This document shows, piece after piece, positions 2,572 to 45,682 of a DNA stretch of 64,000 nt (its first letter is position 1; each line of letters begins with the position of its first letter). The stretch covers positions 32,001 to 96,000 of the forward strand of contig JBBQSO010000007.1 of assembly GCA_038213805.1 (NCBI GenBank). The letters run 5' to 3'. Under the pieces are notes generated by a model. The model worked only from the letters and a program-made list of their open reading frames with translations, made no database searches and was not told the DNA's origin. The DNA comes from Planctomycetota bacterium. GTDB lineage: Bacteria; Planctomycetota; UBA11346. Both the position numbers and the translations under genes were made by a program.

Positions 2572-5217
2572 ATGCGCATGCCATTCCTCCCCGTCGCACT
2601 CGCTCTGGCTGCCTGCGCGCCGCTGGCCGCCTCCGACGTGTTCGCAGATTTCGCCATCCCCGACCTGCTGCCGCTGGCCAAAAAACACAGCGTGATGAAC
2701 ACCGGCGCGATCAAGCTCAAGAGCCACTACGACCGCGACCTAGGCAAGCTCGGCGAACTGAAGGCGGGCTCGCTGCGCCTCGACCTGTCGATCGGCAAGC
2801 GCGACGATGCGCCGATGTGGTGGGACGTGGTCAATGGCCCGGATCCCGACCACCTTGGCTACAATTTCGCCAACGTTGACTGGCTGGATGGTGAACTGAC
2901 CAAGCAGGACACCCTGCCCTACTGGGGCCTCGTCTATATCCCGATACCATTCCAGGATCCACGTCAGCCAGCGGACGACTGGCGCTTCCTCGATCCCGAC
3001 CGCTTCAACTGGGACCGCTGGCAGGAGGCTTCACGCACCTTCGCGGGTCACGTGCGCGGCCTGCACCAGCATGGCTACCTCGAGGCGCTGAACGAGCCCG
3101 ACCTGTACCTGCCGTGGATCACCGGAACCGACACCGAAAACCTCAAGAAGGGATATTTCCTGCGCGTGCCCAACATGGACACCCAGCTTGAGCCGACCAC
3201 CTTCCAGATGTACGTGCGCACGGCCAAGGGCTTCAAGGAGGGCGATCCGGACGCGGTCGTCGGCGGTCCGGCGCTGGCGGGCGCAGCGATGCAGTGGACG
3301 GGCCCGTTCCTCGACTATGTCGCGGGCAACCAGGCGCCGATCGACTTCTTCTCGTTCCACGTGATCAGCGGCGACGATCCGTTCAGCGTGGTCATCCCGC
3401 GCACCCAGGGCGTGCGCAATCAGCTCGCCGAACGCGGCTGGGCGCACTCGGTCGAGATCCACATGAACGAGTACAACGCCTACGGTCATCCCTGGGACCA
3501 GGACACCAACTCCAGCGACCTCGCCGTGCATGTCATCGAGAACTGCCACGACCTGCTCGGCCAGCACGACCTGACCGTGATCAGCTGGGCACAGGCGATG
3601 GACAACAGCCAGGTACAGGGCGCAGTGAACGGCGACCAGACCGCCGGCCTGATCGACTGGGAGGGCAACCGCCGGCGCGCCTTCAGCGCCTTCGCGATGT
3701 ACGGCGACATCCCGATGCCGAGCTTTCGCAGCAGCGAAACTGGCAGCATCCACACCATGGCCGGCGCCGACGCGGGCAAGGCCGGCATCATCGTGTGGAA
3801 CAGTGATGGCGCGCAGGCCAGCGACGTGACCGTGACCGCGCACCACATCCCCTTCGCGAACGCGGTGTTCCGCCTGGTGGTGATCGACCCGACCGGCACC
3901 GGCAACCCACAGGGCCTGAACCCGTCGGTGCAGGAGACCCAGGCGATCACCAATCCGATGTTCCGCATCGTGCACCTGCCGCCGCGTTCAGTCGCCTACC
4001 TGTCGTGGACCAGCACCACCGCACCAGCGCTGGCGGCGCCCGCAGGCCAGGTGGTGCGCGTCCACCACGACTACCCGAACCGCGCCACCCACTCGTGGGC
4101 GGAATACGACCGCCGCGCCTGGACCGCGTGCCTGGGCATGGACGACGCGAACGACCTGCAGATCGTCGGCACCACGGTGCGCGAGCTCGCAACCACGGTG
4201 CACGTGTCCTGCCGCACGGCCGGCGCGCCCGCCAGCGGCACGCTGGGCATGCGCATCGACTACCTGACCGGCGGCGGCTATACGAAGAGCGTGCTCTTCC
4301 ACGGCGGCCTGGCCGCTGGCTTCACTCTCCCGTGGGGCAGCGGGCGCCCCGTCGACCAGAGCGTGGCGATCGCGCTCGGTGACGCCGACATCATTCCGGG
4401 CGATTTCGCACCGGCGGGCTGGCTCGGGCAGGCGGTGGTGACGTACGTGATGAACCATACTGGGAACGGCACGCGTGCGACCTTCGTGCTGAGCGCCGGT
4501 GGGTCGACGGGGACGGGAACAGGAACGGGAACGGGAACGGGAACGGGAACGGGAACGGGAACGGGAACGGGAACGGGAACCGGAACCGGTACTGGCACAG
4601 GGACCGGGACGGGTCTGCCCACCGGAGGCAGCGGCGTCGGCCTGACCGGCCAGTACTTCGCCACGAGAGACCTGAGCGGCCCGGCGCTGACGCGCACCGA
4701 CCCGGTGATCGATTTCACCTGGGACACCACGCCACCCATCGCGGGCATCGGTCTGGCCGACTACAGCGTACGCTGGACCGGCACCATCCAGGCGCCGACC
4801 AGCGAGCCCTACACCTTCCACGCGTTCAGCGACGATGGCGTGCGCCTGACGGTCGACGGCCACCAGCTCATCGATCATTGGGTCGACCAGGGGGTGACGG
4901 AATCCACCGGCACCATCGCCCTGACCGCCGGGCACAGCTACGCCATCACCATGGAATACTACCAGCACGCTGGCGGCGCGACCGCGCGGCTGCTGTGGAG
5001 CACGCCCTCAAGTCCGACCGCCGCCGTGGTGCCCCAGTCGCGGCTCATTCCGGCGGCGGGTGGCGCAGCGGGGACGGGAACGGGTGGCGGTACTCCGGCG
5101 ATCTCAAGCACGAACGGCAGCGGCTGCGGCTCAGGAATCGCGGCGGTGGTGCTGATGCTGAGCGCACTGTCGATGATACGCCTGCGCGGCGCGGGTGGGC
5201 GTCAGCCGCCGGAATGA
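2572..5217 (+). CDS. Secreted GH39-like (clan GH-A) glycoside hydrolase with (Thr-Gly)18 linker, PA14 domain and C-terminal CGSG-TM-Arg tail
   Basis: RBS GAGG at 2563 and signal peptide MRMPFLPVALALAACAPLAA. LNEPD acid/base, VGGPA, PIDFFSFH and HMNEYN nucleophile motifs. PA14 motifs YSVRWTG, SDDGVRL and MEYYQ. Confidence 0.82.
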   Translation: MRMPFLPVALALAACAPLAASDVFADFAIPDLLPLAKKHSVMNTGAIKLKSHYDRDLGKLGELKAGSLRLDLSIGKRDDAPMWWDVVNGPDPDHLGYNFANVDWLDGELTKQDTLPYWGLVYIPIPFQDPRQPADDWRFLDPDRFNWDRWQEASRTFAGHVRGLHQHGYLEALNEPDLYLPWITGTDTENLKKGYFLRVPNMDTQLEPTTFQMYVRTAKGFKEGDPDAVVGGPALAGAAMQWTGPFLDYVAGNQAPIDFFSFHVISGDDPFSVVIPRTQGVRNQLAERGWAHSVEIHMNEYNAYGHPWDQDTNSSDLAVHVIENCHDLLGQHDLTVISWAQAMDNSQVQGAVNGDQTAGLIDWEGNRRRAFSAFAMYGDIPMPSFRSSETGSIHTMAGADAGKAGIIVWNSDGAQASDVTVTAHHIPFANAVFRLVVIDPTGTGNPQGLNPSVQETQAITNPMFRIVHLPPRSVAYLSWTSTTAPALAAPAGQVVRVHHDYPNRATHSWAEYDRRAWTACLGMDDANDLQIVGTTVRELATTVHVSCRTAGAPASGTLGMRIDYLTGGGYTKSVLFHGGLAAGFTLPWGSGRPVDQSVAIALGDADIIPGDFAPAGWLGQAVVTYVMNHTGNGTRATFVLSAGGSTGTGTGTGTGTGTGTGTGTGTGTGTGTGTGTGTGTGLPTGGSGVGLTGQYFATRDLSGPALTRTDPVIDFTWDTTPPIAGIGLADYSVRWTGTIQAPTSEPYTFHAFSDDGVRLTVDGHQLIDHWVDQGVTESTGTIALTAGHSYAITMEYYQHAGGATARLLWSTPSSPTAAVVPQSRLIPAAGGAAGTGTGGGTPAISSTNGSGCGSGIAAVVLMLSALSMIRLRGAGGRQPPE
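4507..4614 (+). repeat. In-frame hexamer repeat ACNGGN x18 (nine consecutive perfect ACGGGA) encoding a Thr-Gly linker
   Basis: Counted directly in the sequence. Confidence 0.95.
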
Positions 5218-5371
5218 ACGGCGCTTGAAGCGCGACGCCGGGGATGACTGGGGTCGATGCGCGACGCAGCCGGCCGACACCTCCACCAGCCCACGCCTTG
5301 CATCCTTCCTGTTCCAGGCATTCTGCCCCGCATCGAGGGCTCTCCCATGCGGCTGTGGATGATGCTGGTGG

Positions 5372-6307: not shown

Positions 6308-6338
6308 ACTTCTGAGGCGCGGCAGCGCCGCAGGCCCC

Positions 6339-7032: not shown

Positions 7033-7067
7033 TAAATATTAGATTCGGCCGCGGAAGACCTGCGCCA

Positions 7068-20050: not shown

Positions 20051-20065
20051 CAAAAGGAAAAGCAC

Positions 20066-23000: not shown

Positions 23001-24610
23001 GCAAAGCGCTGACGCTGACCGTGACCGCCGCGCCGCTGCTCGCCCATGAAGCGTTCCCGTACACCAGCGGCGCCATCGACTGGAATGGCCAGGGCGGCGA
23101 GAACGGCTTCGCCGAACCTTGGAACCGGCTGGTCGGCGGAAATGGCCAGGGCCAGGTTCCGGTGTATCCCGCAAGCTACGTGGCTGGGCTTTCCGCTTTC
23201 GGAGTCACCGCCACGGGCGGCGCCGTGCAGCTGACGAGCGTGCAGCAAATCCCCGGAAATACCAACAGCCAGAAGAACCCCGAGTATGCGCGGCGCCTGC
23301 TGACCGGGTTCAGCGATGGCGGCTCTGCTGGCGCCAACGCCTGGATCAGCTTCATCGGCAAGGGTACGACTCCCGGCACAGGCTATCTCGGCGTCGGCCT
23401 CTTCAACGGCAACACCGAGAAGATGTTCATCGGACAGCGCTTCGGGATGAGCAACTGGGGTGTCGAGGTCGCCGGTGGTGGTGGATCCGCCGACAGCACC
23501 TCCAGCCTGTCGAGCACCGCCTTCGTGGTGGTGAACATCCGCGTGCTCAGCGGCAGCTCGCGGGAGGTGCGGCTGTGGGTGAACCCGACCCCTGGAACGT
23601 CGGCGCCGAGCGATGCGGGCGCCGCCCTGGTCACCACGGGCACGGAGCTGTCATTCGACACGCTGCGCCTGCGCGGCGACAGCATGGTATCCAAGCTGAC
23701 CGTCGACGAGTTGCGCGTGGGCGCATCCTTCGCCGATATCAGCGGCGTCACCGTGGCGCATCCGACGCTGCAGGTGTCGCGGGCCGGCAACGCGATCGGC
23801 GATGGCGGCAGCGATGTGGTCGTCGGAAGCGCTGCGGGCACCGCCCAGGCGCTGACCTTCGTACTGACGAATTCAGGCTCCGCCCCGCTTTCGGTCACCA
23901 CACCGGTCACGGTGTCGGGCATGACGAACTGCTCTGCGTCGGTCACGACCCAACCGGGCAGCGCGATCGGCACTGGAGCCACGTCCGACCTGGTGGTGAC
24001 CGTGACGCCGACCGCCGTCGGCGCGTGGTCGCTCGCGCTGGCGGTGGTGAACACCGACAGCAATGCCACCCCGTACGACTGGACGGTGACGGGCACGGCG
24101 GGCGCCGTCGCGGTTCCCGGACTCGCCATCACCCGCAGCGGGACGACCATCGCCGATGGCGGGACGGATGGGGTCGCCGGTGCAGTCGCCGGCTCGCCCC
24201 AGGCGCTGACCTACGTGCTCGCCAACAGCGGCGGCGCTGTGCTCGGAGTGACCGTTCCCGTGACCCTGTCGGGCGTGACCAACTGCACCGCGACCGTGAC
24301 GACGCAGCCTGCTGCATCGATCCCCGCCGGTGGAAACGGCACGTTCGTGCTGACGGTCACCCCGACAGTCGCCGGGCCGTGGTCGTGCTTGGTCTCGATC
24401 ACGAACACCGACGTCAGCCACGCGCCCTACGACTGGACCGTCTCCGGCACCGCGCAGGCGGCCGTCAGCGGGCCGACGGGCGGCTCGAGTGGTGGCTCGA
24501 GTGGTGGCGGCAGCCATGGCTGCGGCCTGGGGCAGGGCATTGCGTTGGTACTCATGCTCGGGTTCAGCCTGATGTGGCGATTCAGGAGCGGGCGTCGGCC
24601 CACGGGCTGA
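20066..24610 (+). CDS. Secreted multidomain GH31 alpha-glycosidase with DUF5110-like, putative Ig and two choice-of-anchor-D-like repeats and C-terminal CGLG-TM-Arg tail
   Basis: RBS AAAGGA and signal peptide. IPLDHFILDFDW, GYWHDEGDE nucleophile, VWSGD acid/base, ELYARWLQF and YLPAGTWYDYF. Two internal repeats of about 115 aa ending PYDWTV. Confidence 0.9.
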   Translation: MSLAPRRDTTLSIRSSRLLSTALGGLGCLALSTAVAAAEPGNVTLQAQTAESVTLANAGGDRVFVRVLKPNLLEVDYRPGNQTSPMTLIMDPGFAAKTWSPGTVSIADGASEVVLTTSAMVVRIAKSPCRVNVYETDGTTRIFGEAAAAGMTDARVKFEFDANLNWYGIQSAPSTRGREMGSTTLGDYVTKTFVTQLTRQNVTPAVDLNARWHGSETGPFAWTTGAASKRGFGVLWDNDGGSVAFSSTTLEMNKTNERCVSAVSSTKLDTLWFAMVGTPTEITQAMIELSGRPQMFPKYAQGFGNTEWGINEEELRSHINAYRSRHIPLDHFILDFDWKAWDLNDYGNFEWNLRATNVAASDFRGFPAASDTTLKTYTDAMGVKLMGITKPRLHVDTVQGAVITAGAATGATWRNAGSVGWWLPSGSPSTFKTDYWGSQRGRSDKVGNLNFFIPAARAWYAQNSIDRAFDKGIVGYWHDEGDEGPDSGDIPSASNFYNPLYQEGIYTYQRANKPGTRVWSMNRHSYLGSQRYGYGVWSGDISTDWRTLKTEAPRMLQTINAGMARTGTDAGGTAGSADSIGTIATDGVSKNVPTDELYARWLQFAAMQPTFRIHGVYLINRQPWFHGSEAEIAATEVIRLRSRLMPYIYAHDRIYSETGVPFVQPLVWDYPKDANVAERTDAWMFGRALLAAPILEPRATVTSPDGSLSMAGTTSKSIYLPAGTWYDYFRGTVHAGGATFIYPVSTSTLRELPLFIKKGAIIPSLPTALDHVAAAPITTVRLDMFPDTALTSFTYYDDDGVSYQYESGTFFKQAVSVQQSGSTVTVAFADKQGGFAPALQHYLIAINKFSATTVAGFTSFASQAALEAASGEGYAIGSGVHGSITYIKVAAGSARTITATGTNPGLGIATTTLPAATRNAPYDAQLGADGLGASSTWSVTPALPAGLVLDARTGRITGAATVAGSTSYTFQVSSGATASKALTLTVTAAPLLAHEAFPYTSGAIDWNGQGGENGFAEPWNRLVGGNGQGQVPVYPASYVAGLSAFGVTATGGAVQLTSVQQIPGNTNSQKNPEYARRLLTGFSDGGSAGANAWISFIGKGTTPGTGYLGVGLFNGNTEKMFIGQRFGMSNWGVEVAGGGGSADSTSSLSSTAFVVVNIRVLSGSSREVRLWVNPTPGTSAPSDAGAALVTTGTELSFDTLRLRGDSMVSKLTVDELRVGASFADISGVTVAHPTLQVSRAGNAIGDGGSDVVVGSAAGTAQALTFVLTNSGSAPLSVTTPVTVSGMTNCSASVTTQPGSAIGTGATSDLVVTVTPTAVGAWSLALAVVNTDSNATPYDWTVTGTAGAVAVPGLAITRSGTTIADGGTDGVAGAVAGSPQALTYVLANSGGAVLGVTVPVTLSGVTNCTATVTTQPAASIPAGGNGTFVLTVTPTVAGPWSCLVSITNTDVSHAPYDWTVSGTAQAAVSGPTGGSSGGSSGGGSHGCGLGQGIALVLMLGFSLMWRFRSGRRPTG

Positions 24611-32878: not shown

Positions 32879-33943
32879 TCACCAGTTGGTGGGCTCGGTA
32901 CGCAGGCGCTGGATCCACAGGATGGTGCCGCCCATGTTGCGAGCATGGTTCTGGGTGCGGTACTCGCAGACGTCCTCGGTGTGCGAGGCGTTGAGGGGCC
33001 AGATCACATAGTGGTCGAATTCGCGGCCGCGCGAGTGCAGCAGATAATGGTAGTCCATGGCCATGCAGGCGCCGTTCCATTCGACGCGATAGAACAGGCG
33101 GCACTCGCTGGAGTTCAGGCTGGTAAACAAGTTGGGGTCGTCGCCGAAGGCCGAGGTCTGGCCGGCGGCCTGGACCTCGCTCCAGCTGCGGAAGCCCAGG
33201 GTGCCGCCGCCGCCGCAGGTCACCACGAAGGTCGCGCCGCCATCGCGGAACAGGCGGAACCACGACATGCCGGTGGAGTTGCCGCGCGGCCGCGCGTCCC
33301 CGGCCAGGTAGGCGGCCCAGTTGTTGTGCAACGTGCCATCGGCCTCGGTGATGGTCAGCGCCGCGCCCACGTTGGCGCCCAGGTCGCTGGCGAGCCAGCC
33401 GTTGCGCACCACCGGCTGAGGGTCCGGATTGCACAGGTAGGGCATGCCGAAACGCGCGTCGCCTTCGCCGACCGGCTGTGGCGAGACGGTGGTGCGGATC
33501 GGGTTGTAGGCGGCGGTCAGCTGCACGGCGCAGGGCGCACGCTGCCGCACGTACATCGGGAAGCGACGGGAGCTGCCGAGCGGGAAGCGCGAGTCGTCGT
33601 CGACGTTGTCGCCGTAGTACTTGGGTCCGAGCTTGCCATCGCGCACGTCGATCCAGCCGAAGGTCTCGAGGTGATCGACCGGAGCGCCGCCGACGGCGGC
33701 GGGTTCCCAGCCGATGCGCGAGGCCTCCTGCAGATAGTTGCAGGCGGCGAGCAACATGATGCGCGCCTGCGATTCGCGCATGACGCTGGCCATCTCCTCG
33801 GCATCGCTGCGCATGCGCGCGAGGAAGGCAGCGGCAAGGGAGACCAGCAGCGCCGAGATGCCGGCGACCAGGATCAGAATGGTGGCCTGGCGCAACGGGC
33901 GGCGGGACGTGGACGTGGACGTGGACGTGGACGTGGCGGGCAT
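32879..33943 (-). CDS. PilX/GspK-like minor pilin-type protein
   Basis: RRPLRQA/TILILVAGISALLVSLAAAF: basic leader and hydrophobic helix without Glu5, followed by SQARIMLLAA; last gene of a pilin-like trio. Confidence 0.6.
   Translation of the reverse strand: MPATSTSTSTSTSRRPLRQATILILVAGISALLVSLAAAFLARMRSDAEEMASVMRESQARIMLLAACNYLQEASRIGWEPAAVGGAPVDHLETFGWIDVRDGKLGPKYYGDNVDDDSRFPLGSSRRFPMYVRQRAPCAVQLTAAYNPIRTTVSPQPVGEGDARFGMPYLCNPDPQPVVRNGWLASDLGANVGAALTITEADGTLHNNWAAYLAGDARPRGNSTGMSWFRLFRDGGATFVVTCGGGGTLGFRSWSEVQAAGQTSAFGDDPNLFTSLNSSECRLFYRVEWNGACMAMDYHYLLHSRGREFDHYVIWPLNASHTEDVCEYRTQNHARNMGGTILWIQRLRTEPTNW
33905..33934. repeat. GGACGT x5 hexamer repeat encoding (Thr-Ser)5 in the leader of the PilX-like gene
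   Basis: Counted directly in the sequence. Confidence 0.9.
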
Positions 33944-33950
33944 GGCGGTT

Positions 33951-35225
33951 TCAGTAGGAATCGAGGTTTGCCGGAGGCGCGGAGAAGGCGCCCTTGGTGG
34001 TGTTGTTGTCCCACGCCGCCCAGCCGGTGCCGGGTGCGCGCTGCTGGCGCGCGCCGCGCAGCGAGGTGCCGAAGCCGGCGAAGGACAGCTCGATGGCCTC
34101 GCCGGTCAGCGGGCTGACCCAGCGCACCTTGCACAGCGCGACATGGCGGGTGTTCTTGATGAAGCGCGCGACCGCCACGCTGACCTCCGGCCAGCCGGCC
34201 GGCTTGGCGGCCAGCAGGCGATAGGGGATGGTGGTCATGCGGTTGAAATTCTGCATCGCGTTGGCGTCGTTCTGGTACCCGACACTGTACTTGCGGCGAT
34301 TGTCGGTGAGCGGCGCGCCGTTCACAGACCAGTCGGGGTTGGCGATGGCGTAGGCGGTCATGTAGGTGTTACGGTACTTCCCGCGCGCGGTAGTCTGGCC
34401 ACCGTCGTCATTGTTGAACATGTAGGGGTTGCCCGTGGGTCGGTTGCACCACGAGGGGATGCCGCCGGCATTGGTCTGCACCCAATCCGACATGCCGCCG
34501 GTGTTCGCCGGCTTGTACAGTTCGTAGATCGCGTTGGCGGGCATGTATTCGCACAATCCGTAGAAGCCAAGGGCGTTGACCAGTCCCTCGACCTGGTTGC
34601 CGTACCAGCTGCGGGGCACCGTGCCGTCGCCGCTGAGGGGCCCGAAACCCACTGCTACCGAGGTAGCCATCCCCTCACTGGTCGGGGGACCCGCCTTCAT
34701 CAGCTGCGCGAAATCGCCGATGCCGGGAATGCGCTTGGTGTTGGTGAACATCGCGTAGCGGCCGAAACGCAGATCGAGCGCGTTGCCGTCGGACTTCTCG
34801 GCCATGTTGCCGGCGTACCAGCTGCGCGGGTTGTCGACCGACCAGCTGATGTCGCGCGGGTCCCAGCCGGTGGCGGACTCGTCGTCGGCCAGGGTGCCGC
34901 CGCCGCCACTGCGCGGATAGACCGCCGGGAAGGGGGTGAACGGCAGGCCCTGCGGGCCGCCTGCGGTGCCGGTCCCGCCGCTTGCGCGCAGCGCCTGGCG
35001 GGTGATGTCGTTGGGGTCGTCCAGGCTGGTCCAGAAATCGAGCTCTTCGTGGGCGGCGAGGACGGCGGCGCGCAGCATGCCGTTCTCAAGCGACATGCGG
35101 TTGGCCAGGGTCACCGACTGTGAGGCGACGCGGAACCCGGCGGCGGCGGTGTAGATCAACACCAGGCCCAGGCCGATGGCGATCATCATCTCGATCAGGG
35201 TGAAGGCGGAGCGGTGCGTGGACAT
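33951..35225 (-). CDS. Prepilin-type N-terminal cleavage/methylation protein (PilW/GspJ-like, about 424 aa)
   Basis: MSTHRSA/FTLIEMMIAIGLGLVLIYTAAAGF class III signal with Glu5. Confidence 0.85.
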   Translation of the reverse strand: MSTHRSAFTLIEMMIAIGLGLVLIYTAAAGFRVASQSVTLANRMSLENGMLRAAVLAAHEELDFWTSLDDPNDITRQALRASGGTGTAGGPQGLPFTPFPAVYPRSGGGGTLADDESATGWDPRDISWSVDNPRSWYAGNMAEKSDGNALDLRFGRYAMFTNTKRIPGIGDFAQLMKAGPPTSEGMATSVAVGFGPLSGDGTVPRSWYGNQVEGLVNALGFYGLCEYMPANAIYELYKPANTGGMSDWVQTNAGGIPSWCNRPTGNPYMFNNDDGGQTTARGKYRNTYMTAYAIANPDWSVNGAPLTDNRRKYSVGYQNDANAMQNFNRMTTIPYRLLAAKPAGWPEVSVAVARFIKNTRHVALCKVRWVSPLTGEAIELSFAGFGTSLRGARQQRAPGTGWAAWDNNTTKGAFSAPPANLDSY

Positions 35226-35235
35226 GGTCGCCCTT

Positions 35236-37128
35236 TCAGCGCACGATGCAGGGCAGGCGCGGATCGTAGTAGTTGAAGCGCCCGACCGAGGTGGCGCGCA
35301 TGCGCACCGAGCGCGGCACGGTGCCGCGATCGAAGCGCTTGTTGAAGTTGCGATCGGCGCCAAACGTCCCACTGAACACCTTGCGCGCCTGCAGGCTCGA
35401 GCCCTTGTCGCGGTAGCCGTTGCTGTTGAACGTGTTGTTCAGCAGCATCTTCCCCGAGACGTCGGCCCCGACCGTGTCCTGGGCGGAGGCCTCGGCGAAG
35501 AGCAGCACCTTCTCGGGGTTGCGGTAGGCATAGAGCTGCTCATCGCGGAAGTCGACCTTGTCCATGCGCGCGTTCGCGTCCTCGGTGCCGACCGGCGAGC
35601 GGAAAGGGTACTTGCTGGCGTCGACCGGCGCGCTGGGCGCGGATTCGAAGTCCTCGTAGGACTGCCAATCCACCGCCCAGAACACTAGCTGCCGGCAGCG
35701 CTCGTCGGCGTCAAAGCGGCGCGTGAGCGTGAAGTGGTCGAGTTCGCCCCAGAATGGCGATCCGCTGGCGACGCCCACGGGCGGCGATGAGTCGGGAAAC
35801 TGATAGCTGCAGCCGGGGTTCTTGACCAGTTGCGCGGCGATCGGCTTCCACTGCGCCGCGTCGACCGAACCCATGCCCTGGCCGCCGGCGAAGATCTTGC
35901 CGCTGGCCGGTGGGGTGAAGAGGTCCCACTCCAGCAGCGGGTAGTCCATCATGATGCTGCGCTGCAGCGGACGGGGGCAGGCCCAGTCGTAGGGACAGCT
36001 GGCGGCGTAGGTCATGATCGTGCGCAGACAGCGCTCGTGGTAGTACGCGATCAGGTCCTGGGTCAGGGTCAGGCCCGGAAAGCCTCCGCTGGCGGGGATG
36101 GGCAGGCCGCCCGTGCCCGAGGCGCCGAGCTCGGCGCTGGTCTTCCAGCGCGTCACGCAGGTGGCCGCGTGCGAGACGAAGCGCAGCGACTGGACCTGCT
36201 TCCACAGCACCGAGGTGTCGGCCAGCGGCCCCGGCGTATAATGGAGGAACACCGTGCTTGGCGTGGCGAATTCCGCAGTCAGCGTCGAGGTCGGCTTGAA
36301 CAGCGCATCGAAATCGGAAGAGCCCAGCTTCTGCACCGCATAGACCAGCGCGGCCTGCAGGTAGAGGATCGCGTGGGCCTCGTCCGTCGCACCCGGCGCC
36401 TGGGTGTAGGCGAGGTAGGCGTCGAACACCGGCTTGACCTGGGGATCGCCGCCCGGCAGCGAAGCTTCCGGACAGATGATGGGGAATGAGGGCGCTTCGT
36501 TGAAGGTGGCCATCACCGCCCCGCCCTTCGACCACTCATCCTTGTGCGGCCCGTGCAGCGGCGGCGACGGATACGGGTTCTCGTAGGGCCAGTTCTTCTG
36601 CGCCAGGATGTGCACGGCGTTGGCCTGGGCGTAGCCGGTGACGGCGAAGACCAGCTTCTGCGCCTCATTGGGTGGGGCGGTGGCCAGAGCCTGCTCTTCC
36701 AGATTCGACGTCGCCATCGGCTGCGAGTAGTAGAGGTAGCCGCCCTCCGCGAGGATCTTCTGCATCTCATCGCCGTCGCTGTCGAGTCGGCGCGCGATGT
36801 CGAGAGGCAGCGGCAGCACGCCGAAGCGGTGCGAAGCGACGCGCGATTCGAGGTCCCACTCCTGGCTGCGGTAGCTGACCGGGACGTCCCAGGCGTTGGG
36901 CGCCTCGGTGTCGATCGCCGGGTTCGCGTTGTGGGTGGCGTTAAAGCACTCCACGAGCTCCTCGGCCTTGGCCCCGGCGTAGAGCTGGAAGCGCGCCAGC
37001 TGCTGCGACCTGATGCCCATGGGAAAGAGCATGATCACGCTGACCACGCCGAAGGCGAGCAGGCCGAGCGACAGCGCCACTTCGAACAGCGTGAAGCCGC
37101 AGGCCAGGGGGGAGCGAGTAGCGATCAT
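35236..37128 (-). CDS. Large prepilin-type protein (PilV/GspI-like N-terminus, 630 aa)
   Basis: MIATRSPLACG/FTLFEVALSLGLLAFGVVSVIMLFP class III signal with Glu5. Confidence 0.85.
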   Translation of the reverse strand: MIATRSPLACGFTLFEVALSLGLLAFGVVSVIMLFPMGIRSQQLARFQLYAGAKAEELVECFNATHNANPAIDTEAPNAWDVPVSYRSQEWDLESRVASHRFGVLPLPLDIARRLDSDGDEMQKILAEGGYLYYSQPMATSNLEEQALATAPPNEAQKLVFAVTGYAQANAVHILAQKNWPYENPYPSPPLHGPHKDEWSKGGAVMATFNEAPSFPIICPEASLPGGDPQVKPVFDAYLAYTQAPGATDEAHAILYLQAALVYAVQKLGSSDFDALFKPTSTLTAEFATPSTVFLHYTPGPLADTSVLWKQVQSLRFVSHAATCVTRWKTSAELGASGTGGLPIPASGGFPGLTLTQDLIAYYHERCLRTIMTYAASCPYDWACPRPLQRSIMMDYPLLEWDLFTPPASGKIFAGGQGMGSVDAAQWKPIAAQLVKNPGCSYQFPDSSPPVGVASGSPFWGELDHFTLTRRFDADERCRQLVFWAVDWQSYEDFESAPSAPVDASKYPFRSPVGTEDANARMDKVDFRDEQLYAYRNPEKVLLFAEASAQDTVGADVSGKMLLNNTFNSNGYRDKGSSLQARKVFSGTFGADRNFNKRFDRGTVPRSVRMRATSVGRFNYYDPRLPCIVR

Positions 37129-37339: not shown

Positions 37340-40309
37340 TCACGTGCGCGTCCGGCATGATGGCGCTCCCAGCGCTGCGGCGCGACCGGGCGCGCACCTG
37401 GGGTCTTTAGCGAGCGCGAGACGCCGTCGCCGGATGATCCCGCCCGGGGTGAGCAGAGCGGCGAGGATCATCGCGGCGCCGAGCAGGGACCCGCTCCCAC
37501 AGGGGTGCTTCGCGCCACCAGCGCCGGTCCCGGACGCGGCAATGGGAGGCAGCGGATCCGGAGCCGAAACCGTCTGCAGGTTGGCGCTGCCGATGATCGC
37601 CGGCGCGGGGTCGTCAGCGTTCGTAGACCACGCGACCGAGGCGTGGTCCTCGGCGTCGTTGGCGTCGCTCTTCTGCAGCAGTTCAAGCGCATACGCGATC
37701 CCAGCGACCAGGACGATCGGCCCTGATCTCTGCGTGGTCTGGGTGGTCCAGGCGCGGTACGCCGTGCCACTGCCCATCACCTCGGCGATCTTGACCCGGC
37801 CCGCGGGATCGGCGGTCGGAGAGAGCCACAGTTCGCTGCGTCCCCGGGAAGCCACCCAGAAGGTGTAGGTGCCCGAACTGGTCGGCACGACGTTCGCGCG
37901 CACCCGGTTCCCCGCCTCCTTTGACCAGTTGCGACCGATGTCGAGGCTTTCGAGTTCCTGCCGGACCGCCCAATGGTTGGGGAATTCTGGACGGATGTGG
38001 CTGCTATCGCCAGTCAGCTGCCAGATCTCGGTGCCGAAGCTCAGCACCCACCCCTCGCGGCGGGCGGTCCCGGTGCCGAGCGCGCCGTCAGGCCTGGCAA
38101 CGATCACCTGCCGCGGGAGCACTTCGCGGCCATGGTGGTGCACGCCATCGGCAGGCGGGACCCAGGCGAGCGCGAATTGCTGGTTCTTGGGACTCGCACT
38201 GCCCGTCGTGCCGTCGGTGCTGTCGGTGGTCTGAACCAGCTCGAACCAGTAGCGCCGGCCGGCGCTCAGGGTCCGCGGGGCGACCGCCTGGCCAGCGTCC
38301 TTGTCCCATTCCCGCGCCAGCGAACCACGGCCAGCGGTGCTCGCGACCAGGGTGGCGTCGGCCTCCTGATCCGTGGTCGATAGCCGCAGGCGGACCTGCT
38401 CGCCACCGGCGATCCAGAACCGGTAGCTGCCACTCGCCGGCGGCACGATCCAGCCGCGCGCCACCCGCGCTGAACTGCCGACGACATTTGGTTGGCCTTC
38501 GCACACCGGTGGCAGCGCGCGGAAGAGCGGGGCCTTGCGCACGTAGCGCGCGTCCTTGGCGAGGTTGAGCGCCGCCGCGGTGGCGGGATCGCGGCCGCCA
38601 GCGCCCTCGTACCACTCGATGTCGAGCAGGCCATCGCTCGCCACGGGGACGCGGTCGGGTTCGCTGCAGGTCGAGCCGGCCTCGAGCGTGACGCCACCAC
38701 GGCCCACCTGATTCTTCCAGGTCGCGAAATCGGCACCCGCGAACCCCTTGCGGAACAGCGGGCTGTCCTGGTGATAGGTGTTGCCGCTGCACACCAGGGT
38801 CGCGATCAGCGGCGGCGCATGGCTGGCGTCATCTTCGTGGGCGATCAGCGACTGGAGGTAGCTTTGCGCTACCAGGGTGTTGCCGGTGATGGTCACGTCC
38901 TGGGTGCTGGCGACGGTCGCGGACAGGCCGGTGTCGCGGTCGGTGGTGCTGCCCGTGCGGCTGCCGACGCTGAGGTTGATCGCGCCATCGATGTTGTTGG
39001 CGATGGCATTGCCGGTGATGGTGACCTGGCGGGTGGTGTTGAGGTGGATGCCCCACGAGCCGTTGTCGCGGATGACGCAGTCGCGCACCACGTCGCCTGG
39101 CAGGTTGATCTCGAAATACGCGCCGCCGCCCCAGTTCGCAGCAATCGAGCAACCCTCGACCGTCACATCCTTGCAATAGACGTCGAACCACAGGCCGCGG
39201 GCGAGGTTGCCTTCCACGGTGAGGTTCTTGAACAATGCATGGTAGAGACCGCCATTCTTGCTGCCCGCATCGATGTCTCCGGATTGGCGTCCCCACAGGC
39301 CGCGCCACCAGTTGCGGGCGATGGTGCTGTTCTCGAAGCGTACGTAGGAAGACCCGCCGAACGAGACCCCGGTGCCGCCGTTGTCCGCCATCGAGCACGC
39401 GCGGACCGTCATCCGCTGAACTGCGTTGGTCGTCAGGCCACTGCCGCCGTTCCAGTCGAAGTGGCAGTTCTCGATCAGGACGTTCTCCACCCAGGGGTGC
39501 GATGAGTCGCCGTTGGTGATGTCCACCGCGGACCCATAGTTGCCGTCCCACAGGTAACCGGCCGCGCCCTCGAAGCTGATGTTGCGGATCACCAGATTGG
39601 AATGACGCCGCAGGCCGAGCAGCTTCTGATGGGCACCGAACTCGATGACCGCAGCGTTCGGGTCGGTTGCGGTGCGCAGAACGATGGTGTGGGCACCCTC
39701 ATCGACCGTGAAGCATTCCGGTCCAAGACCAGCCACGGCGGTGCGCTGTTCGAGCAGGCGGTTCCCGATCATGACGATCTCGCGCCGCGCAGCGATCTGA
39801 TTGTCCGTGGGCAGCGGGTTGAATGTGGATGGCCAGCCGACGGTTCCGTAGTGCAACGTCCACGGGTGGGTCCAGGTGCCGTCGCCATTGTCGGTCCAGG
39901 CTCCGCCCAGGACCTCGAGTCCGCTGAACAGGGTGGTGGGGCGTCCGCTGGAATCGGCCTCTCCGGTGATGACCAGCGTTTTCACGGAATCCTGGTTGGT
40001 GTTCGATTCGATGTCGCCTTCGCGGTACGTCCCAGCCTTGATGAGCACCTTGACCCGCTTGGCATCCGGATTGGGGACCTCGGTACCACCTACGAAGATG
40101 CGCGGCACGCCCAACGTCCGCGCCACGGCCAGCCCCTTGGCGATTGTGCGGTACGGACTGGCGGCCGTGCCGGCGCCGGTGGCATCGTCGCCAGTCAGCG
40201 CGACGACCACGGTGACGTCGACCGTCTCGTCGCTGAGCGTGGTTCCCGGCACGTCGGCTGCCGGCAGGCGGGACACCATCAGCAGCGTCACGATGAGGAG
40301 AGGTCGCAT
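37340..40309 (-). CDS. Secreted right-handed beta-helix (pectin-lyase-like) protein with two PA14-like domains and C-terminal CGSG-TM-Arg tail
   Basis: RBS GGAG and MRPLLIVTLLM. GDDATGAGTAASPYRTIAKG, IKAGTYRE and GLWFDV repeats of PbH1 type. PA14-like SGSYRFWIAG and SGTYTFWVAS. Confidence 0.8.
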   Translation of the reverse strand: MRPLLIVTLLMVSRLPAADVPGTTLSDETVDVTVVVALTGDDATGAGTAASPYRTIAKGLAVARTLGVPRIFVGGTEVPNPDAKRVKVLIKAGTYREGDIESNTNQDSVKTLVITGEADSSGRPTTLFSGLEVLGGAWTDNGDGTWTHPWTLHYGTVGWPSTFNPLPTDNQIAARREIVMIGNRLLEQRTAVAGLGPECFTVDEGAHTIVLRTATDPNAAVIEFGAHQKLLGLRRHSNLVIRNISFEGAAGYLWDGNYGSAVDITNGDSSHPWVENVLIENCHFDWNGGSGLTTNAVQRMTVRACSMADNGGTGVSFGGSSYVRFENSTIARNWWRGLWGRQSGDIDAGSKNGGLYHALFKNLTVEGNLARGLWFDVYCKDVTVEGCSIAANWGGGAYFEINLPGDVVRDCVIRDNGSWGIHLNTTRQVTITGNAIANNIDGAINLSVGSRTGSTTDRDTGLSATVASTQDVTITGNTLVAQSYLQSLIAHEDDASHAPPLIATLVCSGNTYHQDSPLFRKGFAGADFATWKNQVGRGGVTLEAGSTCSEPDRVPVASDGLLDIEWYEGAGGRDPATAAALNLAKDARYVRKAPLFRALPPVCEGQPNVVGSSARVARGWIVPPASGSYRFWIAGGEQVRLRLSTTDQEADATLVASTAGRGSLAREWDKDAGQAVAPRTLSAGRRYWFELVQTTDSTDGTTGSASPKNQQFALAWVPPADGVHHHGREVLPRQVIVARPDGALGTGTARREGWVLSFGTEIWQLTGDSSHIRPEFPNHWAVRQELESLDIGRNWSKEAGNRVRANVVPTSSGTYTFWVASRGRSELWLSPTADPAGRVKIAEVMGSGTAYRAWTTQTTQRSGPIVLVAGIAYALELLQKSDANDAEDHASVAWSTNADDPAPAIIGSANLQTVSAPDPLPPIAASGTGAGGAKHPCGSGSLLGAAMILAALLTPGGIIRRRRLALAKDPRCAPGRAAALGAPSCRTRT

Positions 40310-40702: not shown

Positions 40703-43012
40703 ATGCTCCAAATTCTCGAGGCCTTCGTGCGCCAGCTCGCGCCCGTCGCCCTCCTCGTCGTCGGACTGGCGCGGCTGTGCGCTGCCGTTGATCCATACCT
40801 GGTGACCTGGGACGCCCCCGGCATCGGCCATCGCGATTCCATGCCGATCGGCAACGGCGACCTGGGCATGAACCTGTGGACCGAGGCGAGCGGCGATGTC
40901 GTGCTGCTGATCGGCAAGACCGACGCATGGAGCGAGAACGGCCAGCTGCTCAAGCTCGGACGGGTGCGCGTGGCCTTCACTCCCAGCCCCTTCCGCGCGG
41001 GCGCGTCATTTCGGCAGGTGCTGCGCACCCGCGACGGCGTGATCGAAATCCACGGCGACGGGCAGGCCGTGCTGCAGGCGTGGGTCGACGCCGATGCCCC
41101 GGTCATCCACGTGCAGCTGGTCGACGCGCGGCCCCGCGCGGCCCACGTCAGCCTCGAATCGTGGCGCACCGCGCCCCGGCGCCTGGTCGATGTCACCGGC
41201 AATGCGGAACTCGCGCAAGGCCTGCGCGAACTCCAGGGCTCGCCGGCGGGTGGGCCGACCATCGATCCCGACACCGTGCTGGCGGCGCCGGACAGCCTGA
41301 TCTGGCTGCACCACAACGCGCGCAGCATCTACGGCGACCTGCTGCGTAACCAGCACCTCGAGGCGCTGCAGGGCGCATTTTCCGATCCTCTGCTGCACCG
41401 CAACGTCGGCGCGCTGGCGCGTGGGCCCGGGCTGACCGTCGTGGACGACCACACGCTGACGACTGCGACGCCGCAGGCCGGCCTGCGCCTGGACATCACC
41501 GCCTTCGCGAACGTGGCGGAGCGCACCGACGTCTGGCGCGCCGGCGTGCAGGCGGCCGCCGACCAGGCGGCGGCGCGCGATGCAGCCGCTGCGCGCGCGG
41601 CCACGCAGGCGTGGTGGAACCGCTTCTGGGAACGCAGCTGGATCCTGGTCGGCGGCGAGGCGCACGCTGCCGAGGTCACCCAGGGCTTCATCATGCAGCG
41701 CTGGATGACGGCCTGCGGCGGTCGCGGGCCAGCGCCGATCAAGTTCAACGGCGGCACCTTCACGGTCGGCCAGGAACCGCCATCCGGCACGCCATACGTC
41801 CCGGAGCAAGGCCGGGTGGATCCCGATTTCCGCGTCTGGGGCAGCAACGTGTGGTTCCAGAACACGCGCCTGATCTATTGGCCGATGATCGCGAACGGCG
41901 ACCTGGACACCCTGGCGCCGTTCTACGCGATGTACAAAGCAGCCCTGCCGCTGGCGACGGCGCGCACCCGCCTGGCCTGGAGGCACGACGGCGCGATCTT
42001 TCCCGAGACCATCTTCTTCTTCGGCTTGCCGTCCAACAACGACTTCGGCTGGGGGAATCCCGGTCCGGAGATGACCAATCCCTACATCGGTCGCCACTTC
42101 AACAACGCGCCCGAACTGATGATGATGCTGCTCGACACCTGGGACCTGCATCATGATGCGGATCTGGCCACAGGCACGCTCCTGCCGCTCGCCGATGCCT
42201 TCACGCTGTGGTTCGACCAGCACTGGCCGCGCGTCGCCGGCAAGCTGCGCTTCGAGCCGTCCGAGGCGCTCGAAACGCGCCAGCACGCCGCAGACCCGCT
42301 GCCCGACATCGCCGGCCTGATGCAGGTGCTGACGCGCCTGTGCGCGCTGCCCGAGGCGCTGACCACGCCGGCGCAGCGGGCGCGGTGGCACACCATGCTC
42401 GCCGACCTGCCACCGCTGCCACGCGGCCTGACCGACGCCGCCGGCAAGGTGCCGGTCACGCCCGACCAGGCCTCACCCACCGGCACCCCCATCCTGTGGC
42501 CCGCGGCGTCGTTCGATGCGCCGAAGAACAGCGAAAATCCGGAATTGTACGCCGTCCACCCCTACCGGCTCTTCGGTGTCGGCCTGCCGGAGCTGGAACT
42601 CGCCCGCGCCACCTACGAGGCCAAGCGCTTCGCGGACAGCACCTGCTGGGGCCAGCAGGGCATCCAGGCAGCGTGCCTGGGCTTCGCCGCCCGCGCACAG
42701 CGGGAAGCGGTGGCTAATTTCACCGCGTACGACAGCCAGCGTTTCCGCTGGTTCTGGAAGTCCGGGGACTGGCAGCCTGACCTGGACAATGGCGGCGCCG
42801 GCCAGCTCATCCTGCAGTCGATGCTGATGCAGGCGCGCGGCGACAGGATCCTGCTCTTCCCGGCGTGGCCGAAAGCGTGGGACGTCGATTTCCGCCTGCA
42901 CGCCGCGCATGACACGGTGGTCTCCGGCACCGTGCGCGGCGGCCGCGTGATCGATGTGACGGTCATCCCGGAAAGCCGGCGGAAAGATGTCGTCCAGATG
43001 GAGTTGCAGTGA
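40703..43012 (+). CDS. DUF5703-domain / GH95-like glycoside hydrolase, copy 1
   Basis: DSMPIGNGDLG, KTDAWSENGQLLKLGRVR, IKFNGG, WFQNTRLIYWP, NSENPELYAVHP, ILLFPAWPKAWDVDFRLHA. Confidence 0.8.
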   Translation: MLQILEAFVRQLAPVALLVVGLARLCAAVDPYLVTWDAPGIGHRDSMPIGNGDLGMNLWTEASGDVVLLIGKTDAWSENGQLLKLGRVRVAFTPSPFRAGASFRQVLRTRDGVIEIHGDGQAVLQAWVDADAPVIHVQLVDARPRAAHVSLESWRTAPRRLVDVTGNAELAQGLRELQGSPAGGPTIDPDTVLAAPDSLIWLHHNARSIYGDLLRNQHLEALQGAFSDPLLHRNVGALARGPGLTVVDDHTLTTATPQAGLRLDITAFANVAERTDVWRAGVQAAADQAAARDAAAARAATQAWWNRFWERSWILVGGEAHAAEVTQGFIMQRWMTACGGRGPAPIKFNGGTFTVGQEPPSGTPYVPEQGRVDPDFRVWGSNVWFQNTRLIYWPMIANGDLDTLAPFYAMYKAALPLATARTRLAWRHDGAIFPETIFFFGLPSNNDFGWGNPGPEMTNPYIGRHFNNAPELMMMLLDTWDLHHDADLATGTLLPLADAFTLWFDQHWPRVAGKLRFEPSEALETRQHAADPLPDIAGLMQVLTRLCALPEALTTPAQRARWHTMLADLPPLPRGLTDAAGKVPVTPDQASPTGTPILWPAASFDAPKNSENPELYAVHPYRLFGVGLPELELARATYEAKRFADSTCWGQQGIQAACLGFAARAQREAVANFTAYDSQRFRWFWKSGDWQPDLDNGGAGQLILQSMLMQARGDRILLFPAWPKAWDVDFRLHAAHDTVVSGTVRGGRVIDVTVIPESRRKDVVQMELQ

Positions 43013-43282
43013 GCGCACCCTGACCACCGGGTCCGTCGGTCAGGCTGCGGATGCGGTCGGTGGTCCTGATGTGCGCCCGCCCGCCTTCAGCGACCGCTTG
43101 GTCCAATTGCCGATGGATGAGGCAAGTGGCAAACGCATTGCAAATTGTGCGCGCGAGTATCGACGCGCGCCGACGAGGCGCAGCGACGTGATGACATGCG
43201 TGACGGTGCCTGCACCACTGCGTACGGCAACGGGCGCACATGGTTGCGGTACTCACGCCGGCCCCGACCTGGGTCCATGCGT

Positions 43283-45682
43283 TCAGGGTCGGGCGGCGCG
43301 CACCATGGCGAGGGCGAGGCCGAGGCCGGCTAGCAGCGCCGCCACGCCCGCACCGAGTCCGCAGCCACCTCCACCTCCACCGCTGCTGCTGCTGCCGCTG
43401 CCACCGCCTGCGCCTCCGCCGCTTCCGACTGGCGCCGGCGCGACGGTGAGAATGGCGCTGGCGCTGAGTGCGGTACCCGCGGCGTTCGAGACTTGGCAGC
43501 GCCAACTCGACCCGTCATCCGCGACGCTCGTCGCGACATCCAACACCGGGCCAGTGGCGCCCGCCACCGTGGCCCAGGTCCCGCTGCCCGCGGCTTGGCG
43601 CTGCCACAGCCAGCTCAGCGGCTGCGTGCCGCTCGCGGCCACATGCATACCCGGCGCCGCCGGGGCGGTAACGCTGGCGGCGGCGGGGTCGGCGGTGATG
43701 GCGGGCGCGATGACGGCCAGGGGCGGCGTCGGCGCGGAGCGGTAGTCGGTGCCCGAGGCCGCGTAATAGGCCGGCGTCGCGGGCGGCGCCGACGCACCGA
43801 CCAGCACCACGCTGCGGTATGCGGCAACGGCGACGGTCGATCCGACCGTCGCCCCCGCGAGGTCGTGCCAGGTGCCCGCAGGCACGGCGATGCTGGCGGT
43901 GCTCTCGGTGTCATTGAAGAGCAGGATGGGATGGCCCAGCACGGCGGTGGCGCTGCCCGCCCACGAGCCGTTGGCCGCCTGCCACGCCGCCGCCGTCTGG
44001 CTGGTCCCGCCGTCGGTGCGCGCTGCCAGGCTGGCGGTCGGCATCACGAAGGTCGACGTCGACATTGCGCCGTAGTCGATCCCAGTCTCATAGCTCAGAC
44101 CAGTGGCCACCGGGTTCGCCCACGAGGCCAGGTTCTCGGTCCAGGCCTGGCGTCGGGTGGGACTCACCACGCCCAGCACGTTGCCGCCGAGCGTGTGGTT
44201 CTGGCTCGCCGGCTTGCTGGCGTTGCCGCGGCTTAGGCTGATCCCGCCCAGGCGGTTGTCGATGCAGGTATTGCCGCTGACCGTGCACGAGTAGTTGTTG
44301 GGCAGGAAGATGCCGTTGCCGCCGCACCCGTACACGGTGTTGTCGAGCAGCTGGGTGTCGTGGAAATCACTGAGGAATTCCGGCCAGATGCCGTGTCCCA
44401 GCGGCGTCCACGGGTGCGACGTCTCGAGGTTCCCCACGCTGTCGAGGACGATGTTCTCGCTGATGTGTGAGAACGAGCAGTTGGCGTAGACCGCGGCGCC
44501 GTCGTTCAGCGAGGCCACGCAGCGCACGAAGACGTTGCGCGCCACCGTGTGCCCGTCGGACCCCAGGATCACCCCACAGTAGCCGACATCGGTGAAGCGA
44601 TTGAGCCGAATGGTGAGCGCCTTGGCGCCCAGCACCACGACGCCGCACGCGTGCCACGCGCCGCTGCCGCCATAGCCGTATTGCATGCCAACGCGTTCGA
44701 AGACGTTGCGTTCGATGATGGTGCCGCCGGTCTTGCTGGAATCCTCGATCCACTGCACGCCGTTGTTGCGGATGTCGCGGAACGTGCAGCCCGTGACGAG
44801 GCTGCCATAGGCGTTCCAGGTGCCAGCGATGGCGTCGGTATCGCATTCGCGGAATTCGCAGGAGCGCACGGTCGTGGGCCCACCCAGGCTGAGCGCGGTC
44901 CCTGCGAAACGGCAGAAGGCGATGCTGTCGATCGTCCCACCGTTGGCGATGATGCCCTCGGTGGTGGTGGCCACCTCGACCGTCGACGCGCCGGCGGGCA
45001 CCTGCACGCTGAGGACGCCTGCGCCCCAGAACCACTCGCGGTCGCGGTCGAGCTCGGCCAGGACGTTGTCGATGTAGTAGGCGGAACCGATGCCGACCAG
45101 GTTGGCGTCAACCTCTGCGGTGCCGCCGATGGTCAGGTGCGTCGCGTCGACGTCGGTGGTGATGGGGCGCGTCTCCCACCACCAGCTCCAGCGGCGCCAG
45201 CGCACCTGACCACCGCCGAATCTGTGGCCGGCGGTACGCGCACTGAGGCCGGCGTCGACCAGGCTGGTAGCGGTAGTGCCGTCATCGACGGTCAGCCAGC
45301 CGCTGTTGGGAAAGCGCGCCAACGGCGCGAACGTCCCGTCGATCCACAGCGCGCGCACCGCACTGGCCACGCTGGCGGTCTTGATGGTGCCGCCGCCGGG
45401 CGCAACCACGGTGCTGATGGTGACGATCGGCAGAGCGCCGGTGCCATAGGCGGTCAGGGTGCGGCCGGCCGGCAGCGTGAAGGTGCCGCGGTAGGTGCCG
45501 CCGCGCTCGAGCAGCACGCGGTCGCCTGATCCGGCCTTAACCAGGGCGGCCGCGACCGTCGCCAGCGCGGAGCCCGGCGACGTGCCACTGGCGGCGTCCG
45601 AACCGGTCGGTGCGACATGGTAGTCGGCGGCGTGCAACGAGCCGCCCAGTACCGCGAGGAGGATGGCGTGGCGCAGTTTCAT
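43283..45682 (-). CDS. Secreted right-handed beta-helix protein with Ig domain and C-terminal CGLG-TM-Arg tail
   Basis: RBS AGGAG and signal peptide. YHVAPTGSDAASGTSP, GDRVLLERGGTY, LARFPN and LNDGAAVY. Ig domain PLSWLWQR..WRCQVSNAAG. Confidence 0.8.
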   Translation of the reverse strand: MKLRHAILLAVLGGSLHAADYHVAPTGSDAASGTSPGSALATVAAALVKAGSGDRVLLERGGTYRGTFTLPAGRTLTAYGTGALPIVTISTVVAPGGGTIKTASVASAVRALWIDGTFAPLARFPNSGWLTVDDGTTATSLVDAGLSARTAGHRFGGGQVRWRRWSWWWETRPITTDVDATHLTIGGTAEVDANLVGIGSAYYIDNVLAELDRDREWFWGAGVLSVQVPAGASTVEVATTTEGIIANGGTIDSIAFCRFAGTALSLGGPTTVRSCEFRECDTDAIAGTWNAYGSLVTGCTFRDIRNNGVQWIEDSSKTGGTIIERNVFERVGMQYGYGGSGAWHACGVVVLGAKALTIRLNRFTDVGYCGVILGSDGHTVARNVFVRCVASLNDGAAVYANCSFSHISENIVLDSVGNLETSHPWTPLGHGIWPEFLSDFHDTQLLDNTVYGCGGNGIFLPNNYSCTVSGNTCIDNRLGGISLSRGNASKPASQNHTLGGNVLGVVSPTRRQAWTENLASWANPVATGLSYETGIDYGAMSTSTFVMPTASLAARTDGGTSQTAAAWQAANGSWAGSATAVLGHPILLFNDTESTASIAVPAGTWHDLAGATVGSTVAVAAYRSVVLVGASAPPATPAYYAASGTDYRSAPTPPLAVIAPAITADPAAASVTAPAAPGMHVAASGTQPLSWLWQRQAAGSGTWATVAGATGPVLDVATSVADDGSSWRCQVSNAAGTALSASAILTVAPAPVGSGGGAGGGSGSSSSGGGGGGCGLGAGVAALLAGLGLALAMVRAARP

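Follow-up and report, generated by a model that had tools for sequence, protein, structure and literature searches.

For the four published C-terminal sorting signals of the Cys type, a protease has been named but the enzyme that lipidates the Cys has not, and the accessible part of Guo et al. (2025; PMC11980579) suggests Lgt for this role, its Discussion presenting Lgt as the leading candidate for the MYXO-CTERM acyl-transferase that is yet to be named. Here a Cys-containing tail is described from a planctomycete genome (G000: 5.5 Mb, 69% GC, 90.3% complete), of which a window of 64,000 nucleotides (G000:C7:32001-96000) encodes four secreted proteins that end in a Gly/Ser linker, the motif Cys-Gly-x-Gly, a membrane helix and an Arg cluster. 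This CGxG tail is very probably a true sorting or anchoring signal on unrelated secreted proteins. Within one Planctomycetota family it is found together with a second, divergent Lgt, called Lgt2, and we give about even chances to the reading that CGxG-CTERM is a family-specific signal of the Cys type in which Lgt2 treats the Cys as that of a reversed lipobox and lipidates it. Literature searches returned nothing that joins Planctomycetota with CTERM or sorting signals; the terms sortase and CTERM do not occur in a 2025 planctomycete review, and neither Planctomyc nor Lgt occurs in the accessible part of the Haft preprint (bioRxiv 10.1101/2023.06.07.544157).

The CGxG tail, its carriers and its distribution

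A six-frame screen of the source genome by regular expression and hydrophobicity gave 35 matches, of which eight, without linker or basic end or in non-coding frames, were dropped and 27 were judged to be real tails of the layout described above. All 27 lie within 25 residues of a stop codon, and two are incomplete, one of them cut by a contig edge (C39) and the other in a short frame (C20). In a hidden Markov model (HMM) built from the 27 tails, the members, which as seeds score by construction, obtained 18.0-42.8 bits and the next sequence 12.0. When an HMM made from the four window tails was run genome-wide, 7 of the 23 other tails were recovered at ≥10 bits, plus one non-terminal stray. 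In parallel, a motif-blind screen for proteins of at least 250 amino acids with one C-terminal membrane helix and a basic cluster found 38 proteins, 21 of them with CGxG, and no second common motif was visible in the other 17, indicating that the Cys is not an artefact of the search pattern. A 28th tail stands on a frame of 51 codons (G000:C36:8508-8597, minus strand) that overlaps the end of an opposite-strand gene and is probably the remnant of a lost cargo gene.

Conservation of the Cys, expected by the initial annotation of the window, is borne out by 78 of 79 non-redundant C-terminal matches from fetched family loci, in which C, G+1 and G+3 are all present (the HMM itself favors CG). The motif had been written as CG[L/S]G; its CG core and G+3 stood, whereas position 3 is variable (L 46%, V, F, A, I), and it is therefore named CGxG. 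At least two basic residues follow the helix in 77 of 78 tails, and with a median of 19 residues from the Cys to the first basic residue the helix has sufficient length to cross the membrane.

The carriers had been described as glycan-active enzymes, which does not hold for most of them: they range over GH5, GH31, GH39, CBM6, beta-helix, M36 and S8 peptidase, PhoX/phytase, GDSL lipase, GSDH and NHL/MBG/cadherin repeat proteins, so that peptidases, phosphatase- or lipase-type enzymes and repeat proteins are tailed as well. Among 23 cargo proteins searched against Pfam, five gave no match at all, and BLAST similarity outside the tail was found in only 7 of 351 cargo pairs. A hydrophobicity heuristic for signal peptides passes 23 of 27 cargos but also 824 of 1432 background proteins; by eye, most of the cargo N-termini resemble Sec signals. 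Ten homologues of the GH39 protein of the window end in the tail (3), a plain stop (5), a type IX secretion system (T9SS) C-terminal domain (1) or an apparently shifted end (1). With reference to the criteria for C-terminal sorting signals in the Methods of the Haft preprint, as far as accessible, the CGxG tail is multi-copy and near the C-terminus, has at least three near-invariant residues, a helix and a basic cluster, and occurs on unrelated cargos that have tail-less homologues. At least five of the 27 tail genes adjoin, by eye, an apparent extracytoplasmic function (ECF) sigma/anti-sigma pair (C6:75081, C17:50628, C18:3529, C28:30099, C110:7183), a neighborhood which suggests that cargo expression may be substrate-induced.

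An HMM from a 52-row alignment detected tails in 38 of 48 family genomes, with 374 matches in total, most of them not inspected singly. Genome G020 was negative at E≤0.005 but positive for Lgt2, and a relaxed threshold revealed two true tails, bringing the final count to 39 of 48; the other nine negative genomes gave no tail even at E≤2. Within the family, presence of the tail is all-or-none by genus. None of 16 other families matched in a first sample. A wider sample of the phylum, which covered 236 genomes from other families and scored no more than 31 candidates in each, gave weak matches in 17 genomes, one or two apiece. Inspection of 17 loci, 13 of which gave rows, left one clear Gly-Cys tail of another flavor, one ambiguous case and otherwise non-tails. 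The former (L438, genome G178) is a Gly-run-Cys tail nearer the MYXO type; the latter (L447) is a CGIG-helix-Arg end from genome G249, which in addition encodes an Lgt with the WYGG variant. As the outside matches are few and weak, the CGxG form is essentially specific to one Planctomycetota family among the genomes searched, which agrees with the lineage-specific tripartite signal with invariant Cys that had been predicted. In a quick single-gene tree of RpoB, the tail-positive genomes form one clade of 16 plus G023, which is nested among negatives (SH-aLRT 99), and a single clade of positives was rejected (p-AU 0.0015; test run without G020 and two long outgroups).

The Lgt2 paralogue and its association with the tail

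Because a Cys-helix-Arg tail may be regarded as a lipoprotein signal read backwards, Lgt genes were counted in the family genomes; Guo et al. (2025), in the accessible part, likewise point to Lgt and an inverted topology. Most tail-bearing genomes turned out to have a second Lgt gene. In a tree of 44 rows chosen from the Lgt matches of family genomes, Lgt2 forms a clade apart from the housekeeping Lgt (17 rows, support 100/94), and an Lgt adjoining a tail gene in G050:C24 was rejected as an Lgt2, being a housekeeping Lgt by its place in this tree. The Lgt2 of the source genome matches PF01790 with 172 bits and stays below the cut-off of TIGR00544 (105 versus 118.9), which the housekeeping Lgt of the same genome passes at 192. 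Its predicted structure (pLDDT 87) has the Lgt fold, with PDB 5AZB as the sole Foldseek match at E≤0.001. Lgt2 thus resembles Lgt in fold and in nine of the 13 Lgt motif residues, which are invariant in 15/15 Lgt2 rows (Y26 in 12/15), R143, G154, Y235, R239, E243 and R246 being kept in 15/15. It differs from Lgt in its score to TIGR00544, in the replacement of H103 by Tyr and of N146 and E151 by Cys, and in an N-terminal extension of about 55 residues, for which two helices are predicted. The source genome contains yet another Lgt-like gene, its third, which is highly divergent (G000:C5:10205-10867, 64 bits), and similar low-scoring matches occur in about a dozen family genomes, all of them tail-bearing.

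An Lgt2 HMM separates its members (≥276 bits, with one split gene at 182+154) from other Lgts (≤118). Before G020 was rescored, 32 of the 38 positives had Lgt2, as did a single genome among the 10 negatives; as this genome was G020, Lgt2 correctly predicted tails that had been missed. The final count is 33 of 39 tail-bearing versus 0 of 9 tail-less genomes, or 13/13 versus 0/5 genera, and G023, although nested among negatives in the RpoB tree, has both tail and Lgt2. Completeness is 61-83% for the six tail-bearing genomes in which Lgt2 was not found, and the linked barrel gene described below is likewise missing from four of these, which fits assembly gaps. Fisher tests give 3e-6 by genome and 1e-4 by genus, values that overstate the case.

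In the source genome, lgt2 starts 18 bases after the stop codon of a tail gene, and across the family it lies within about 8 kb of a called tail gene in 11 of 34 loci from five genera. A gene order that recurs begins with a tailed adhesin and a Ser/Thr kinase that has an FGE domain, continues with the beta-barrel, the FecR-like protein and, in some loci, a second tailed protein, and ends with lgt2 and rplS. The barrel has 16 strands with porin-like matches only (weak EpsL match, 20.7/275) and is single-copy in most genomes. Two tail-less genomes (G016, G055) keep the adhesin-kinase-barrel-FecR module, but in neither does the adhesin carry a tail, nor is there an Lgt2, whereas 12 of 12 adhesin homologues from ten positive genomes carry the tail (ten were picked knowing that a tail was present, two were not). 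Among the module genes examined, it is Lgt2 that is tied to the tail. Lipidation at the Cys, raised as a possibility by the initial annotation, thus gains genomic support from a co-distributed, neighboring Lgt paralogue. In one locus (L346, G004:C140) both lgt2 and the rplS that follows it are broken into two frames, perhaps by assembly errors, and genome G018 has two near-identical barrel-FecR-lgt2 contigs (L335, L336), reflecting either duplication or strain mixing.

Several observations weigh against Lgt2 as the enzyme of the tail. The complete 13-residue Lgt motif is not present, N146C and E151C being found in 15/15 Lgt2 rows and H103Y in 13/15, and according to the accessible part of bioRxiv 10.1101/2025.03.27.645668, N146A abolishes function in E. 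coli and low activity is presumed for a homologue with N146C; the same source describes replacements of the H103, N146 and E151 type as natural Lgt variants. CC-type Lgts are widespread (at least 583 confirmed matches), and in a crude neighbor screen a clear tail stood beside only 1 of 80 of them, that one being a close relative of Lgt2, while 2-4 Lgt copies were counted in 5/5 genomes checked from other families. On the quick RpoB tree only two phylogenetically independent contrasts are available (sign test p 0.5), so that a comparable pattern could be shown by any gene of the main clade, and the barrel tracks the tail almost as well as Lgt2 does (34/39 positives versus 2/9 negatives). In 23 of 34 lgt2 loci, many of them on short contigs, no tail gene was called, and often lgt2 just precedes rplS. 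The G023 copy has as its neighbors a giant protein without the tail and an FGE lipoprotein whose lipobox is ordinary, whereas the tail gene of that genome is found by the kinase-barrel module. In addition, MrtX cut TraA in E. coli (PMC11980579, accessible part), an argument that for MYXO-CTERM a housekeeping Lgt, or no lipid at all, can be enough, and searches of the family genomes found no protease for the tail.

Protease candidates, proposed mechanism and alternatives

Cleavage of the tail had been part of the initial proposal, and this part did not find support: none of the CPBP/myxosortase, rhomboid/rhombosortase, exosortase, PrsW or LspA candidates tested follows the tail across the family genomes, a survey that a divergent protease may escape, given incomplete assemblies and a loose first-pass filter. 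The source genome has four CPBP proteins, to which a local CPBP HMM added no fifth, and none is near a myxosortase cut-off (best scores MrtS 34.8/130, MrtJ 42.5/75, MrtA 13.2/200). The best of them lies on contig C100 (Mrt_core 33.7 bits, MrtJ 42.5); within the fetched loci, orthologues of it were seen for 22 genomes of the family. All four were rejected as cognate protease, as each type also occurs in tail-less genomes and none was found in all well-assembled positives: in G014 and G042 (94 and 96% complete) only an ABC-permease/CPBP fusion was found and in G011 only an unrelated CPBP. Exosortase (PF09721) was rejected since it was not found in any of 11 genomes of the source genus and is present in 9/39 tail-bearing and 2/9 tail-less genomes, as were PrsW (0/5 genomes) and an extra LspA, LspA being single-copy in nearly all genomes. 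Among the four rhomboids of the source genome (22-38 bits versus the cut-off of 84 for rhombosortase, TIGR03902), the one shared with G011 and G042, profiled in 48 genomes, occurs in 6/9 genomes that have no tail, while neither G023 nor G020 yielded it; of the other three, compared in five genomes, two have orthologues in negatives and one is without the catalytic Ser. By eye, no protease-like gene was seen among the two genes on each side of all 27 tail genes. A type II secretion system (T2SS) cluster (GspF of contig C5) was likewise rejected as a partner, occurring in 10/39 tail-bearing and 2/9 tail-less genomes, and other GspF/PilC paralogues are present in 48/48 family genomes. At L079:12137-14814 (G023:C32), a VIT/VWA protein with a Cys-less GlyGly-like tail has a rhombosortase-like gene (69.6/84) directly after it; the two make up a sorting pair of their own, 2-4 kb from the G023 tail gene.

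In the proposed mechanism, the cargo would be exported by Sec through its N-terminal signal peptide, to judge from its sequence, and the helix would then stop transfer, a topology that would leave the Arg cluster inside and bring the Cys to the periplasmic surface of the inner membrane. There the Cys would take the place of a lipobox Cys with the chain reversed, the tail read backwards being basic - hydrophobic - G-x-G-C. Co-occurrence and synteny point to Lgt2 as the enzyme that would put diacylglycerol on this Cys; the helix might then be cut off by an unrecognised protease or be kept, and the lipidated enzyme or adhesin would be held at the envelope, probably at the surface, although it may face the periplasm. 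A more far-reaching version, in which Lgt2 is a specialised "reverse" Lgt that yields C-terminally lipid-anchored envelope proteins without a myxosortase, their export possibly helped by the co-inherited 16-strand barrel, is put forward tentatively and with some doubt.

An alternative would leave the signal as it is and have it handled in a MYXO-CTERM-like manner by the housekeeping Lgt and then a general CPBP, with Lgt2 hitchhiking on the kinase-barrel-FecR-rplS locus or serving N-terminal lipoproteins of the module, as the FGE lipoprotein adjoining the G023 lgt2 might indicate. It would agree with the assignment of CPBP proteases to all four published Cys signals (Haft preprint, accessible part), with the function of MrtX in E. 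coli (PMC11980579, accessible part) and with the four CPBPs of the source genome, of which that on C100 comes closest. However, the maximum for Mrt_core (NF040914) in the 48 family genomes is 41.7 bits, versus a cut-off of 100, all four CPBP types extend to tail-less genomes and none was found in every positive (see G014, G042 and G011 above), and a hitchhiking Lgt2 is at odds with its absence from the module exactly where the adhesin is without a tail; we consider this alternative rather unlikely.

That no protease tracks the tail, that the helix can span the membrane and that the T2SS cluster follows the tail so poorly would also suit a single-pass anchor, neither cleaved nor modified, that keeps enzymes at the periplasmic side of the inner membrane, with CGxG as a helix-packing, turn or disulfide motif. 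Such an anchor is improbable, as Cys-Gly-x-Gly is invariant across unrelated proteins whose helices vary freely, repeat adhesins make up many of the cargos and one homologue has a T9SS domain, and the link with an extra Cys-lipidating enzyme would be left unaccounted for. Even less credit is given to the idea of a GlyGly-CTERM variant that carries a Cys and is cleaved by a rhomboid protease. Its attractions are the Gly-rich linker, weak matches to GlyGly-CTERM-related models, the four rhomboids and the rhombosortase-like gene about 4 kb from the G023 tail gene, yet no more than 30 of 78 tails have Gly-Gly before the Cys, the rhomboids score far below the rhombosortase cut-off and are distributed as described above, and the G023 gene has a Cys-less GlyGly-like neighbor of its own.

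As regards lipidation by Lgt2, the shared distribution and operon of the tail and the divergent paralogue make the earlier guess about Lgt directly testable. The tail alone is a modest addition, and the Lgt2 link provides a concrete candidate for the lipid-anchoring step of Cys tags. If the reading is true, Lgt2 would be the first identified enzyme lipidating any Cys-CTERM signal, Lgt chemistry would operate on a reversed chain and C-terminal lipoproteins would be a genome-wide class. Since no myxosortase was found, the data suggest that the conserved core may be lipidation and not CPBP cleavage. The tail model also offers annotation for several hundred envelope enzymes and adhesins (374 matches, 48 genomes) of an uncultured planctomycete family.

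Window features and comparison with known signals

The four Cys codons of the window lie at the positions first claimed for them, and the tail sequences agree (Table 1). The Arg run RRRR given as the end of the third protein is present but not terminal. As to domains, GH39 with PA14, GH31 with He_PIG, beta-helix with PA14 and beta-helix were recovered with Pfam, and the Ig domain ascribed to the fourth protein gave no match at E≤0.01. Directly downstream of cargo 3, a three-gene pseudopilin-like cassette (32879-37128, minus strand) shows weak Verru_Chthon and PilV matches, and a similar cassette follows a tail gene on contig C24 of the source genome. Two DUF5703 paralogues with near-identical stretches lie on opposite strands (40703-43012, plus; 56717-59023, minus).

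Table 1. Tailed proteins and tails of the window, in window coordinates, and the lgt2 locus of the source genome, in contig coordinates
Feature	Position	Strand	Basis or remarks
Cargo 1, secreted GH39-like + PA14 protein, ~881 aa	2572..5217	+	Pfam PF01229, PF07691; start from gene caller
CGxG-TM-Arg tail 1	5101..5205; Cys codon 5125-5127	+	tail HMM and codon check
Cargo 2, secreted GH31 + Ig-like protein, 1514 aa	20066..24610	+	Pfam PF01055, PF21365, PF05345
CGxG-TM-Arg tail 2	24497..24601; Cys codon 24521-24523	+	tail HMM and codon check
Cargo 3, secreted beta-helix + PA14 protein, ~990 aa	37340..40309	-	Pfam PF13229, PF07691; start by eye from signal peptide
CGxG-TM-Arg tail 3	37421..37525; Cys codon 37499-37501	-	26 residues beyond Arg run
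Cargo 4, secreted beta-helix protein, 799 aa	43283..45682	-	Pfam PF13229
CGxG-TM-Arg tail 4	43286..43387; Cys codon 43361-43363	-	tail HMM and codon check
Conserved operon (L168)	G000:C62:16945-28719		Ser/Thr kinase with C-terminal FGE domain, orphan 16-strand outer-membrane barrel, FecR-like protein, tailed protein, lgt2, rplS
lgt2	G000:C62:27007-28041		second, divergent Lgt; outside the window

When the 27 tails were compared with NCBIfam CTERM models, none reached any cut-off, so that, as anticipated, the tail is not claimed by existing models. The best scores were 10.0/20 and 13.9/15.85 for TIGR03901 and TIGR03382 (MYXO-CTERM), 10.8/15.5 for GlyGly-CTERM (TIGR03501), whose cut-off no tail reached, and 15.8/29 for GVDTG_CTERM (tail 3). 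When the source genome was searched with TIGR03901, a single one of the 27 tails came up, at 14.1 bits (cut-off 20), and the sole match in that genome at the MYXO-CTERM cut-off is a non-terminal frame opposite a real gene; according to the accessible part of the Haft preprint, true MYXO-CTERM members may score low.

Of the marks of the four published Cys signals in the accessible part of the Haft preprint, a second Cys, DP, CGP and a Pro in the helix, 78 CGxG tails show 0, 0, 0 and 5 cases, respectively. CGP-CTERM of Thermococcales (TIGR04288, with MrtA) shares with CGxG the Gly directly after the Cys, whereas CGP itself does not occur in the CGxG tails, the host of CGxG is bacterial and the best MrtA score remains at 13.2/200. 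In Synerg-CTERM (TIGR04564, with MrtS) and JDVT-CTERM (NF033191, with MrtJ), as in CGxG, a single Cys closes a Ser/Gly cluster and is followed by helix and Arg cluster; in contrast, the 27 tails match neither model at E≤10 (HMMER filters apply), CGxG tails have neither DP nor an invariant Pro, and, unlike JDVT-CTERM, CGxG has many cargos per genome. The likeness to MYXO-CTERM, the signal of the myxosortases MrtX, MrtC and MrtP, extends further, to a tripartite structure, an invariant Cys that follows a Gly/Ser linker without spacer, the rarity of Pro in the helix and many unrelated secreted cargos per genome. CGxG differs from MYXO-CTERM in never having a second Cys, in its invariant Gly at +1 and +3, in its phylum, in the lack of any Mrt_core match above the cut-off in the 48 genomes and in the dedicated Lgt paralogue that co-occurs with it. 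In the proposed reading the CGxG tail works like MYXO-CTERM, yet it stands outside that family in model score and in enzyme.

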